DNA from: Bacteroidales bacterium
GTDB taxonomy: Bacteria > Bacteroidota > Bacteroidia > Bacteroidales > WCHB1-69
DNA: 64,000 bases
Assembly: GCA_045132055.1 (NCBI GenBank)
Contig: JBGURP010000012.1
Coordinates: forward strand, 87,366-151,365
Direction of reading: 5' to 3'
In this document: one piece after another, positions 46,221-59,337 of the stretch
How positions within the stretch are numbered: the stretch's first letter is position 1
How the letters are laid out: each line of letters begins with the position of its first letter
Program-made: the position numbers and the translations under genes
Notes under the pieces: model-generated
Databases searched by the model: none
What the model was told of the DNA's origin: nothing
Seen by the model: the letters and a program-made list of their open reading frames with translations, nothing else

Positions 46221-49200
46221 CTAATCAAAGAATCCCAATCCATTGATAGCGCTCAACATGCGATCGACGTAGTCCCACGTGGTGGGTGACCATTTGAAGC
46301 CCAAACGATAGAGCACCTGTGTGGTGTACGGGTTACTAACGACCACCTGTTTGACTTTCATGCCGTGGGCCATATCTTGGTAAGCGAGCAAGCTGGAAAG
46401 CGTCTTGGCCTTCTGGGGATCGTTGCCCGCACTCTCCATGGTGGCGTTGTACTCCTCGTCCTCCACAAGACGAATGTCTGCGCCCAGCTTGTTGAATCCG
46501 CTGAGGACGTCGCCGAGGAATTGCGTGTGGCTGTTGTAAGAATGGAACAGGCAGCACTCCTTAGGTGTGGAACTGAGTAGGATGATGGCGTGTGCCGTTT
46601 CGTCGATGGGCGAGAATTCCACTTTGCTCTCGTAGAGGGCGTATGGGAAACAGCCTAGCATGTTGAAGACTTTGATGCGCCCCATAAAGGAGTTTGTGGA
46701 GAAATTGATTTGGAACTCACCATCGCTGGTGCGCGCTGCCAAGTTACCTACGCGGATCACCTTGGCCGACAATCCTTTCTCCACTATTGATTGCAGCACA
46801 ATGCGTTCCGCCATGAACTTGGAATGAACGTACTGGTTCCCGAGGTATTGACCGTCGTAAAGCCGCTGCTCGGTGAAAATGTAGTCGGGATCCATGGTGT
46901 CGTTGACGTTGAGGCCGCTGGTGCTGTACGTGGAAATGTGTACCAATCGGGCGCCGGTCTTCAGACAAAGTTCCACGCAACGCTGTGCACCTCCCACATT
47001 CACATCCTCAATCTCGGTGCCCTCGCTGAAGTGCTTCACCACCGCGGCACAGTTGAACACCGTGTCAATCTTCACTTGAACAAGGTTGGTCAGGTCGTTA
47101 GTGACATCGCCAAGGACAATGTGGATACGCTTGCCGAACAGTTCATCATAGGTGGATTCAAAATAGTAGAACAGCAGCGTTTTCAGTCTGTGCTCGGCAC
47201 CATCTAAGTTTTTGTCGCGTACCAGACAGTAGATATTCTGTGCATCCGACTGGATCAGTTCCTGCAGCACGTGAATGCCAAGGTAACCCGTGGCACCGGT
47301 GAGCAGTACATTGCCCAAGGATTGCCGCTCGCCATTGCGGAAGCTATCCAATGTGTTGTTGCTAAGTAAATTGTTGATGGAAGAATAATCGAATCGGGTC
47401 ACTTCCTCGTCATCGGTATTGACAGCCGTGCCGCCCGTGACGAGCGCGGCGAGTTTGCGCGGGGTGGCGTTGGCAAAGACGTCGCCGTAGGCCACATGCA
47501 CCCCTTGCTTGTCAGCTTCGATGATGACGCGGGTCACCATCAGCGAGGTGCCGCCAAGGTCGAAGAAGTTGTCGGTGGCGCCGATTTTGTCGAGTGCGAG
47601 GACATCACCGAAGATACGGCAGAACAGCTCCTCCGCCGAATTGGCCGGTGCCACGTATTCGCGGTCGGAGGCCTGCATAACGGGTGTGGGCAGTGCCTTG
47701 CGGTTCACCTTCTGGTTCTGGTTCAGCGGGATGCTGTCGATCTGCATCGTGGAGGCAGGAATCATGTACGGCGGTTTCTGCTGCCCGATGAAGGCGTTGA
47801 GGGCCTTGATGTCCACCTTTTCGTCGCTGACGATATAGGCCGCGATGTACTTTCCTCCGTTCTCATAATCAAAGGCCTGCACGGTGGCATCCTTGATGCC
47901 CGGATACTGGCGGATGACAGCCTCCACCTCCTTGAGTTCGATGCGGAAACCGCGGATTTTCACCTGACCGTCCTTACGTCCCACAAACTGGATGTTGCCG
48001 TCGGGGAGGTAGCGTACGATGTCGCCGGTGCGATAGACGCGGGCGTGCTTCGGGTCGTCGCTGAAGGGGTTCTTCAGGTAGGTCTCGGCCGTCTTCTCAG
48101 GACGGTTCAGGTAGCCGCGGCTCACCTGCGGGCCTGTGACCCACAATTCACCGGCAGCGCCGAGAGGCAATCTATTAAACTGCTTGTCAACGATATAGAG
48201 TTTCAGGTTGTCCAGCGGTTTGCCGATGGGAATATCCAACTCGTAATCCTTCACCCAGTAGTTGGTGGTGAAGATGGTGCACTCCGTCGGGCCGTAGCCG
48301 TTGTACATCTTGTAGTTCGTCGGCGGGTTGAGGGCGGACAGTTTTTCGCCACCCACCGCGAAGCAGCGCAGCGAGTGGTTGTCCACATTCGTGGCAAACT
48401 GGTAGCCCACCTGCGTGGTGATGAACGAGTGGGTGATGCCCTGTTCATTGAAATAGTCGTTGAGGTCGGGCAGGTTCAAGCGGATGTCATCCCCGATGAT
48501 GTGGACGCAGGCACCGCACGTCAACGCCGGGTAAAGGTCCATCATACAGGCATCGAAACCATAGCTGGCATACGCCGCCACGCGGTCGGCGGCCGTCAGC
48601 CCATAATGGCGCTGATACCAATGGCAGAAAGCCACCAAGTTGCCATGTTCCAGCTGACAACCCTTCGGCGTTCCCGTGGAACCGGAGGTGTAAAGCATGA
48701 TGAAAAGGGAGGACGGCGTTAGTGGAGACGGTGCATGCACCGTCTCCACATTCGGTAATGTCGCAATATCCTTTGTCAACAACACCTTTCCTTCATATTC
48801 ATTTACGATGGGACGCAATTCTTCATCGGCAATGAGCAGTTTCGCAGCGGCGTCTTTCATCATAAAGTTCAGACGTTCGGCGGGATAGCTCGGGTCGAGG
48901 GGCTGGTAGGCGCAGCCGGCCTTCAATACACCTAACGAAACGATGGCCATCCATTCGCAACGCGGAATCAGCACGGATACGACATCTTCGTTCCCAAGTC
49001 CTTGTGCGACGACATAGCCTGCGATACGCTCCGAAATCTCATCCACCTCGCGATAGGTGTATTTATTATCATGATACACCACCGCCAGATTGTCGGGCGT
49101 TTGCTCCACCTGCTTGCGGAACAGCGAAACAATGGTCTGGGTGTCGTCGTAAGGCACATCCGTCTGGTTGAAGCTGTCGAGCAAAGCGGTCTGTTCGGCA

Positions 49201-58479: not shown

Positions 58480-59337
58480 TTAATCAATATTGGATGGCCA
58501 AGGATTGGAAACAATACCTGCCATGTCGAGCATAGCCTGGTGTGCAAGATCGCGGATTCGTGCCACCTCTTCTTTTCGAGGCGCATCGGGGTTGGGCACA
58601 ATCGGATCTCCTACATGAATGGTAAGCAGAGGATTATCTATTTTGAAAAATCTGCGCCACCCAGTACAAGGTCTGAAAGAAATCATCATGGGAAGAACAG
58701 GAAGAGCGTATTTGTAAGCCATATTGAAGGCCCCTGTTTTGAATGGTCTGAGCGGAGCATAGTTGTACCAACTGCAACTTTCAGGGAAGATGTGTATCCA
58801 TCGTTTGCAAGATACAATTTCATCGAACGCCTGATCAAATTTTCGGAGCCCGCTGCGGCTTTCTGGGATAGGGATTCCACCTATGTGTTTCATGAGGAAT
58901 CCGTCCTTGCCGTTAAAAGCCTGGGCGTACATGGGAATCCAAGCTTTCTTGTAGCGCATCGCTTGCAGCACGCAAAGCATATCCCACCGGTGCACATGAT
59001 TGCATACCGTCATCAACCCCTTGGCAAATAGTTTGCGATTCTTACGAATCTTGTCACGGCCTTCAATCTTAAGACCATATCGGATGCGGTTTATCGGAAA
59101 AACCACTAACCAAGTGGTTAAATATATGAGAAAATGCCAAATTTTGAATTTCAGAGACTTGTCAAGATAAGGATAAGTATCGTCAAACTTTATATCTTTG
59201 GACTTTCCCCGTATGGGTGTCATCCTCGTAAACGGATCATCTCCCGGAAAATCCACAGTCGGTTCAGGGACATACACACCTTCTCTGACTTTGAAGTTGC
59301 GATAAGCTGGGCCGTAGGATGAGTAGTCGTTTGTCAT
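58480..59337 (-). CDS. lysophospholipid/PlsC-family acyltransferase
   Basis: CNHVHRWD (NHX4D), GGIPI, HIFPE, PFKTGAF..A, PVLP; start taken at MTNDY. Confidence 0.8.
   Translation of the reverse strand: MTNDYSSYGPAYRNFKVREGVYVPEPTVDFPGDDPFTRMTPIRGKSKDIKFDDTYPYLDKSLKFKIWHFLIYLTTWLVVFPINRIRYGLKIEGRDKIRKNRKLFAKGLMTVCNHVHRWDMLCVLQAMRYKKAWIPMYAQAFNGKDGFLMKHIGGIPIPESRSGLRKFDQAFDEIVSCKRWIHIFPESCSWYNYAPLRPFKTGAFNMAYKYALPVLPMMISFRPCTGWRRFFKIDNPLLTIHVGDPIVPNPDAPRKEEVARIRDLAHQAMLDMAGIVSNPWPSNID

Follow-up and report, generated by a model that had tools for sequence, protein, structure and literature searches.

A conserved sensor–STAS–barrel–NRPS cassette of rumen Bacteroidales with a candidate phospho-switch

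Results

A peptide synthetase gene behind signalling and envelope genes

The stretch of DNA analysed here, referred to as the window, comprises 64,000 nucleotides (nt) of a Bacteroidales bacterium (assembly GCA_045132055.1, contig JBGURP010000012.1, positions 87,366 to 151,365) and contains a gene for a reductase-terminated nonribosomal peptide synthetase (NRPS) that follows genes for a membrane sensor, a STAS protein and an outer-membrane barrel. According to the open reading frame (ORF) listing of the window, these four genes form the downstream part of a co-directional set of six on the minus strand. Pfam identifies the sensor (686 aa, 55318-57378) as a membrane protein with fused PP2C phosphatase and RsbW-like kinase, and the STAS protein (100 aa, 54937-55239; Pfam STAS, 69 bits) as a single domain. 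The outer-membrane beta-barrel (452 aa with a signal peptide, 53576-54934) has an AlgE/Alginate_exp fold in an AlphaFold2 (AF2) model searched with Foldseek, and the NRPS (2436 aa from ATG, 46221-53531) shows by its Pfam domains the order condensation (C), adenylation (A), thiolation (T), C, A, T, reductase (R). Ahead of them lie genes for a PlsC-type acyltransferase and for GlsB, and the gaps in the order PlsC-type, GlsB, sensor, STAS, barrel and NRPS are 14, 22, 78, 2 and 44 nt, the last counted to the ATG at 53531. This start was preferred over a TTG at 53540; homologues align from residue 4 of the TTG form. Coordinates and intergenic sequence bore out the six genes and their spacing as described by an original prediction made from the sequence alone, Pfam and NCBIfam agreed with its domain calls, and the likeness of the barrel to AlgE was recovered by fold.

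A contig from another sequencing run (X3; 7133 nt, ~97% identical) spans 51238-58375 and keeps the order GlsB-sensor-STAS-barrel-NRPS, so this order is no assembly artefact of the present record; X3 served solely to confirm gene order at the level of DNA. Two runs labelled metatranscriptomic, but probably of DNA, gave short contigs covering the barrel, part of STAS and parts of the NRPS and of glsAB, with none over 55040-57324, and their coverage was taken as no evidence on expression. The genome to which the window belongs (G000) spans 2.49 Mb, is 99.16% complete and falls within a genus of Bacteroidales that is uncultured.

Four of the genes recur as a cassette

Of the 24 other species in the genus, 10 have the NRPS, and it was found in 13/41 genomes overall (E<=1e-50). 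Around ten NRPS loci from nine congeners, sensor and STAS genes were present every time and the barrel gene in nine; sensor and STAS also stood beside two of four further NRPS copies, giving a partner switch at 12/14 and a barrel at 9/14 NRPS-centred loci. Related NRPSs in other genomes thus do adjoin STAS, sensor and barrel genes, as the original prediction had anticipated for the genes of one system. When 32 loci of rumen metagenome-assembled genomes (MAGs) were centred on the barrel instead, nine of them being the same places as NRPS-centred loci, the sensor was present in 32/32, the STAS gene in 32/32 and the NRPS in 28/32. Every one of the 32 related contigs that have titles derives from a rumen or foregut MAG, the hosts being cattle, yak, sheep and deer.

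The genomic surroundings of these loci differ. An ABC-F gene following dcw genes lies upstream of the cassette in 7/32 loci and atpD lies downstream in L028, as it does in the window, where glsAB is upstream and tRNA-Gly and atpD are downstream; the four genes are linked in more than one genomic setting. In a wider sample of 401 Bacteroidales genomes from 236 genera, we found one more orthologous NRPS outside the genus (54% identical), in G068, a member of another family, where the order is sensor-STAS-barrel-NRPS-MATE. Seven distant R-terminated Bacteroidales NRPS loci (28-37% identical) had a sensor, STAS or barrel gene in 0/7 and a gene for a phosphopantetheinyl transferase (PPTase) in 4/7. 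Judged by gene content and order, sensor, STAS, barrel and NRPS are a conserved cassette that is shared by numerous species within one uncultured genus of rumen Bacteroidales and reaches at least one further family.

In 12/32 barrel-centred loci, STAS and barrel are separated by a gene for an Sfp-type PPTase of 186-194 aa. In G000 the PPTase gene is on contig C27, at L108:4786-5355; it encodes a 59% identical orthologue and is the only PF01648 match of the genome. Genes 3' of the NRPS in relatives showed nothing recurrent (NAD-GDH, flavin reductase, DUF6150 and Fib_succ_major genes).

Variants of the cassette were also seen. Two NRPS genes of the family share a locus in L013/L032 (G002:C9), L050 and L037; in G002:C9 the order is sensor-NRPS2-MATE-STAS-barrel-NRPS1, NRPS2 being ~50% identical, and G002 has three copies in all. 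Some cassettes hold inserted methylase, AraC-type or Fib_succ_major genes. Between barrel and NRPS, on the opposite strand, L026 (14531-16383) and L051 (11555-13446) share a pair of ORFs of ~520 aa and ~94-110 aa that match no Pfam family; the insert of L026 also has an Eco57I-type methylase gene, and the pair may be a mobile element.

Sensor and STAS protein have the parts of a partner switch

The sensor is predicted to consist of a transmembrane segment (~17-35), a periplasmic dCache/PDC region (~36-270), a second transmembrane segment (~273-293), a PP2C domain (~330-549) and a HATPase_c_2 domain (~560-686). Hydropathy peaks at 18 and 269-280 bracket the dCache region, and from hydropathy and sequence the PP2C and kinase domains are predicted on the cytoplasmic side. 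Pfam matches were SpoIIE (PF07228, 185.1 bits, positions 2-191 of 192), HATPase_c_2 (PF13581, 96.6 against a cut-off of 27.4) and MCP-like_PDC_1 (77.7), and scores against the RsbW and SpoIIAB equivalogs of NCBIfam fell below both cut-offs. Asp-containing motifs, which we take to be metal ligands, are visible in the PP2C sequence.

Two classes of sensor and STAS protein, with mutual identities of ~34% (sensor) and ~40% (STAS), both adjoin this NRPS type. The STAS protein of the window scored 73.5 bits against TIGR00377 (anti-sigma factor antagonist; cut-off 53.45), and its Ser55 is invariant in 22/22 aligned STAS proteins of both classes. By comparison with SpoIIAA, we assume that this column is the phospho-acceptor position. 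The STAS protein is the one on which the fused kinase and phosphatase are predicted to act, and the combination of a PP2C phosphatase, an RsbW-type kinase and a single-domain STAS protein is that of the RsbU/RsbW/RsbV partner switch.

The 78-nt gap between sensor and STAS genes contains a Bacteroidetes -7-type box, TAnnTTTG, at 55278-55285 (minus strand), ~46 nt before the STAS start. Such a box occurred within 110 nt upstream of STAS in 16/24 related loci, which are kin and therefore not independent counts; the background is 40 matches per 64-kb window on both strands, and ~0.03 would be expected per 110 nt. STAS, the PPTase where present, barrel and NRPS are likely to form a unit with its own promoter at this box. 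In L023, the sensor-STAS gap (4130-4238) has a short tandem repeat of ~8-9 nt in place of the TAnnTTTG box.

The NRPS is a two-module enzyme with reductive release

Pfam recognized two Condensation, two AMP-binding and two PP-binding domains and one NAD_binding_4 domain in the NRPS. HHxxxDG is intact in both C domains (the first at 131), and the R domain has TGATGYLG at 2082 (numbered from TTG) and YxxxK at 2234 (numbered from ATG). The Ser motif of T2 is present and T1 has a GLTS variant. The two modules are ~47% identical to each other. The T-R part scored 326 bits to PDB 6vtj (Mru_0351 PCP-R of Methanobrevibacter ruminantium) versus 174 bits to the R domain of AusA. The enzyme is AusA-like in kind and not an AusA orthologue, and in the cassette as a whole a signalling module is joined to a reductase-terminated dipeptide NRPS.

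At third codon positions, the GC content of the NRPS gene is 0.68 and that of the sensor, STAS and barrel genes 0.46-0.57. A foreign origin of the NRPS by composition was considered and dropped, since the neighbouring atpD has an equal value of 0.68.

The barrel belongs to a broad family

The AF2 model of the barrel (pLDDT 77.9, pTM 0.73) has a strand count near 18. AlgE structures occupied ranks 1-17 of the Foldseek search (best E 2.6e-16, TM 0.65/0.69). The score against Alginate_exp (PF13372) was 21.7, below the gathering score of 25.2, and many close homologues carry a precomputed PF13372 assignment. AlgE of Pseudomonas aeruginosa (PDB 4azl, 3rbh) is thus the best fold match, from which the barrel differs by an identity of only ~12% and by its neighbours: no alginate biosynthesis genes were found in the part of the window examined or in the related loci.

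The family is broad: its profile matches 190/401 Bacteroidales genomes, and 1871 proteins reach E<=1e-5. Of the 20 top-ranking barrels from outside the genus, that of G068 alone stood in a cassette. In L088 and L093 (genomes G038 and G329), ~30% identical barrels directly follow genes for cytochrome c552 nitrite reductase (nrfA) and ResB/CcsA, a hint that some members of the family serve the nrf system as anion channels. Because distant Bacteroidales relatives follow cytochrome c nitrite reductase genes, the family looks like one of small-solute channels of which one branch was recruited to the cassette.

A sensor-driven phospho-switch may control the synthetase

We consider it reasonably probable that the four genes work as a sensor-driven STAS phospho-switch that controls the NRPS, with passage of a solute through the barrel. 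In this model, the periplasmic dCache domain would bind an extracytoplasmic small molecule, and binding would tip the balance between the PP2C phosphatase of the sensor and its RsbW-like kinase. This balance would set the phosphorylation of Ser55 in the STAS protein, which in one of its two states would turn on production by the NRPS. The synthetase would be primed by the Sfp-type PPTase, whose gene is in the cassette of many relatives and on another contig here; it would couple two hydrophobic amino acids, the first probably N-acylated by the N-terminal C domain, and reductive release would give an aldehyde or alcohol. The AlgE-fold barrel would pass a small solute across the outer membrane, either the product outwards or the signal inwards.

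Several points weigh against this model. Three loci (L025, L029 and L046) have sensor, STAS and barrel without an adjoining NRPS, with opposite-strand genes following the barrel; a fourth NRPS-less barrel locus, L049, is a 7-kb contig, and its genome (G427) has two NRPS copies without a partner switch within 8-10 kb. The correlation of sensor divergence with that of the NRPS is poor, at a Spearman coefficient of 0.25 as against 0.74 for sensor and STAS. A second sensor-STAS pair exists in the window's own genome (G000:C33; L107:9023-11516, minus strand), made up of a 729-aa dCache-SpoIIE-HATPase_c_2 protein (34% identical to the window's sensor) and a 100-aa STAS protein (43%); its immediate upstream neighbours are RelA/SpoT, HD and APH-type genes, SufB follows downstream, and such pairs are therefore general signalling parts.

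For the product, the pocket codes (A1 DAMFLGLVC, A2 DAMFAGGIF; nine readable positions), by which both A-domain pockets look hydrophobic, were read from the sequence at motif positions of the Stachelhaus scheme and were taken no further than this property. NRPSs with the order C-A-T-C-A-T-R are described as giving N-acyl products. The best solved relative of the first C domain is the elongation C domain of TycC (2jgp, E 2.6e-23), ahead of surfactin synthetase (8f7f, E 3.4e-11), which we take to be a starter C domain; by this comparison the domain is closer to the elongation type, so N-acylation is not secured. Finally, the AusA equivalog (NF047350) matched residues 355-2427 with 1535.5 bits, below its cut-off of 2500.

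Some of these points fit an account in which sensor, STAS and barrel are an independent envelope module for signalling or transport that has come to stand next to the NRPS, for instance through a common insertion hotspot, and has no control over it. The three NRPS-less trios would be expected of such a module, as would the tie of the barrel to sensor and STAS at every barrel-centred locus while four of the 32 miss the NRPS, and the closer co-variation of the sensor with STAS than with the NRPS. Fused PP2C-kinase proteins are moreover found in 100/401 Bacteroidales genomes at E<=1e-40, many matching over the full PP2C and kinase length. With such proteins so common in the order, we take the switch to be a general signalling part of the lineage, one branch of which is tied to the NRPS. 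Against a separate module, the distant class-2 sensor-STAS pair also stands directly before this NRPS type, without a barrel (L014, L109, L110), and the genomes of the trios L025 and L029, namely G424 and G425, do hold the NRPS elsewhere, directly behind class-2 sensor and STAS genes and again without a barrel, as does G002:C30. The PPTase, which serves carrier-protein enzymes only, is nested between STAS and barrel in 12/32 loci, and the box before STAS suggests that the genes from STAS to NRPS are one transcription unit. A comparable neighbourhood of phosphatase, antagonist and NRPS genes is described for a rumen archaeon in its genome paper (PMC2812497). We therefore regard a separate module as unlikely, and keep the switch-controlled synthetase as the favoured explanation.

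Sensor divergence does not follow the predicted product

The original prediction had raised the possibility that the Cache domain senses the product of its own cassette, in which case sensors should track the A-domain codes. These codes vary, A1/A2 pairs occurring in several combinations among 26 orthologues. We compared 20 class-1 cassettes (190 pairs), leaving out six class-2 loci. Sensor-domain identity was 0.55 in 29 pairs with the same code and 0.56 in 161 pairs with different codes, whereas NRPS identity was 0.90 and 0.80, respectively. Product sensing thus found no support, in a test that is weak because the loci are kin and products may share a pharmacophore.

The sensor domain is the fastest-changing part of the cassette: compared with the window, this domain is 46-66% identical, PP2C and kinase 57-71%, the barrel 67-89%, the NRPS 75-94% and STAS 76-90%. 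Divergence of the barrel correlates more closely with that of the NRPS (Spearman 0.56) and STAS (0.60) than with that of the sensor domain (0.43). Identities of the cassette genes are also incongruent among loci, as in L047 (NRPS 94%, barrel 67%) and L022 (NRPS 85%, barrel 89%), and L026 and L051 combine class-2 sensor and STAS with a class-1-like barrel or NRPS. Because of this incongruence, the comparison suggests recombination between or within cassettes.

The output of the switch is probably not a sigma factor

We infer that the switch would control production either at transcription or directly on the enzyme. In a canonical partner switch, the RsbW-like domain would hold a sigma factor, perhaps of the extracytoplasmic function (ECF) type, that is freed on STAS dephosphorylation and transcribes the NRPS operon. 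The domain set is the one expected of RsbU/RsbW/RsbV, and G000 has 15 region-2 sigma matches without a region-3 match, which can be read as ECF-type. A sigma-B/F-type factor was, however, not found in this 99%-complete genome, whose single Sigma70_r3 match lies in an open frame of 287 aa, presumably the primary sigma factor. Likewise, no sigma gene lay within any cassette examined, and the box before STAS is of the ordinary TAnnTTTG type. Archaea, furthermore, use no bacterial sigma factors, and it is for an archaeon that the parallel cluster is described (PMC2812497). Release of a sigma factor is improbable on these grounds, and because no sigma-B/F-type factor is in the genome, the output of the switch is probably a target of another kind.

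One form that a sigma-free output could take is direct action of the STAS protein on the NRPS or the PPTase, depending on its phosphorylation. A periplasmic signal would then gate synthesis post-translationally, the barrel would be the door for signal or product, and the logic would be shared with rumen methanogens by gene transfer. A complex prediction for STAS and residues 1-880 of the NRPS returned scores of 0.00 and 0.00, which speak neither for nor against binding, and we hold this specific form to be rather doubtful.

The acyltransferase genes are neighbours of the cassette

The two genes ahead of the sensor encode a glsA-like PlsC-type O-acyltransferase (285 aa, 58480-59337, minus strand; PF01553, 49.9 bits), whose ATG start agrees with homologues aligned from residue 1, and a GlsB glycine N-acyltransferase (354 aa, 57401-58465, minus strand). 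GlsB is a GNAT-type enzyme with an Acetyltransf_5 domain and matched the NCBIfam GlsB equivalog NF053696 with 397.8 bits (cut-off 300), residues 4-306 aligning to profile positions 2-302 of 303. The pair is like the glycine-lipid GlsA/GlsB of Bacteroides in passing the curated GlsB cut-off and in having the PlsC-type gene directly upstream, and we saw no difference from it.

The original prediction had joined these enzymes with the other four in a single pathway, in which they would provide or alter the acyl moiety of an NRPS-dependent lipo-dipeptide or aminolipid. All six genes are co-directional, and the 22 nt between glsB and sensor hold no terminator-like site, so co-transcription is likely in this genome; a second species (G019, locus L040) also has glsAB near its cassette, and the first domain of the NRPS is a C domain, which requires a donor of an acyl or aminoacyl group. 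The distribution of the genes nevertheless runs the other way. L040 is the only one of the 32 barrel-centred loci with glsAB within reach, there on the opposite strand and separated from the cassette by a DapDH-like gene. The NRPS-less congeners G004, G016 and G021 each have GlsB orthologues (78-83% identical) behind a PlsC-type gene, the pair being 76-83% identical, and no cassette genes were found within ~9 kb of it. The PF01553 gene 14 nt upstream of glsB is paired in the same way in G004, G016, G019 and G021, and GlsB was not found in G006 or G012 with the window's GlsB as query. GlsB also scores above the curated cut-off for what is a housekeeping enzyme, and Lynch et al. (bioRxiv 10.1101/371807) place an O-acyltransferase gene directly upstream of glsB in all Bacteroidales. 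The six-gene pathway is thus largely refuted by distribution, and we hold it to be very improbable. Because they are conserved in NRPS-less congeners and near the cassette in only one of 32 loci, the two genes fall outside it; on this comparative evidence they are an ordinary Bacteroidales glycine-lipid operon that came to adjoin the cassette. Of the proposed six-gene system, sensor, STAS, barrel and NRPS stand as the recurrent unit and glsAB does not.

Upstream of glsA, a hairpin with a T-run is followed by a TAnnTTTG box at 59368-59375 (minus strand), found by motif scan. In the 180 nt upstream of the sensor gene there was no such box. With a gap of 22 nt, no terminator-like site and no box of its own, the sensor gene is here probably also driven from the glsA promoter by read-through, which would be a by-product of the rearrangement. 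At the other end of the cassette, a hairpin at 46130-46160, which has a stem of 13 pairs and a loop of 5 and stands between an A-run and a T-run, is terminator-like on both strands. The two boundaries named in the original prediction, hairpin and -7 box upstream and a bidirectional terminator-like hairpin downstream, are thus both present. Just past the downstream hairpin lies tRNA-Gly(GCC) (46050-46123, plus strand), beyond which atpD adjoins.

Two further gene sets of the window lie outside this region. A minus-strand gene at 59457-63998, which runs off the window, encodes a secreted protein of >1513 aa with fn3 repeats, DUF4430 and a C-terminal sorting domain of the type IX secretion system. 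At 39342-44089 (minus strand), genes for an SbcC-like ATPase (1149 aa) and a calcineurin-like phosphoesterase (433 aa) overlap at their ends and are probably SbcCD.

Discussion

SypE of Vibrio fischeri, like the sensor described here, joins an RsbW-like kinase and a PP2C phosphatase in one protein that acts on a single-domain STAS protein, SypA, with an output that is not a sigma factor. SypE is cytoplasmic, with a central receiver domain and an N-terminal kinase, whereas the sensor of the window fuses a periplasmic dCache domain to PP2C and kinase in that order. For the synthetase, AusA of Staphylococcus aureus is likewise a two-module NRPS ending in a reductase domain, but lacks the first C domain. 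The dipeptide-aldehyde NRPSs of gut Firmicutes (ruminopeptin of Ruminococcus bromii and the pyrazinone family) also have two modules and a terminal reductase. A review (PMC12327764) states that these gut Firmicutes enzymes yield dipeptide aldehydes that are protease inhibitors.

The closest precedent is from an archaeon. According to Leahy et al. (2010, PMC2812497), Methanobrevibacter ruminantium M1 has genes for a serine phosphatase, an anti-sigma antagonist, an NRPS and MatE together (mru0066-0071 and mru0512-0516), with a PPTase, antagonist, phosphatase and kinase in a second operon. In the same text, the authors put forward roles in sensing of the environment, control of the NRPS and export, and called the terminal NRPS domains thioesterases. 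As described there, both systems are from the rumen and have a two-module NRPS that opens with a C domain, flanked in the archaeon by serine phosphatases, a STAS antagonist and an exporter. The methanogen differs in its separate phosphatase and kinase, its MatE exporter and its lack of an outer membrane or barrel, the regulators being compared by description only.

The original prediction knew of no characterized Bacteroidales pathway with this combination. Phosphatase, antagonist, two-module NRPS and MatE have been known together since 2010 (PMC2812497), and the version with barrel and fused sensor was not found in print. Our literature search for NRPS together with partner-switch genes returned only that paper, and the search on partner switches in Bacteroidetes and on aldehydes from Bacteroides NRPSs yielded no relevant paper. 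Surveys of rumen biosynthetic gene clusters, in the parts available, count thousands of NRPS clusters, many in Bacteroidota, without describing products or regulators. New relative to what is known are the sensor in which dCache, PP2C and kinase are fused, the barrel with its AlgE fold, the PPTase nested in the cassette and the wide occurrence among rumen Bacteroidales.

Overall, the first reading of the locus is corrected from six genes to four, with the acyltransferases as housekeeping neighbours. What remains is a defined recurrent unit in which a sensor with an exchangeable periplasmic domain and a phospho-switch accompany a channel and a small synthetase. If the switch does control the synthetase, it would offer a handle to induce silent clusters and a case of sigma-free partner switching in Bacteroidota. 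More speculatively, small peptide aldehydes made by such cassettes could affect protein breakdown in the rumen.

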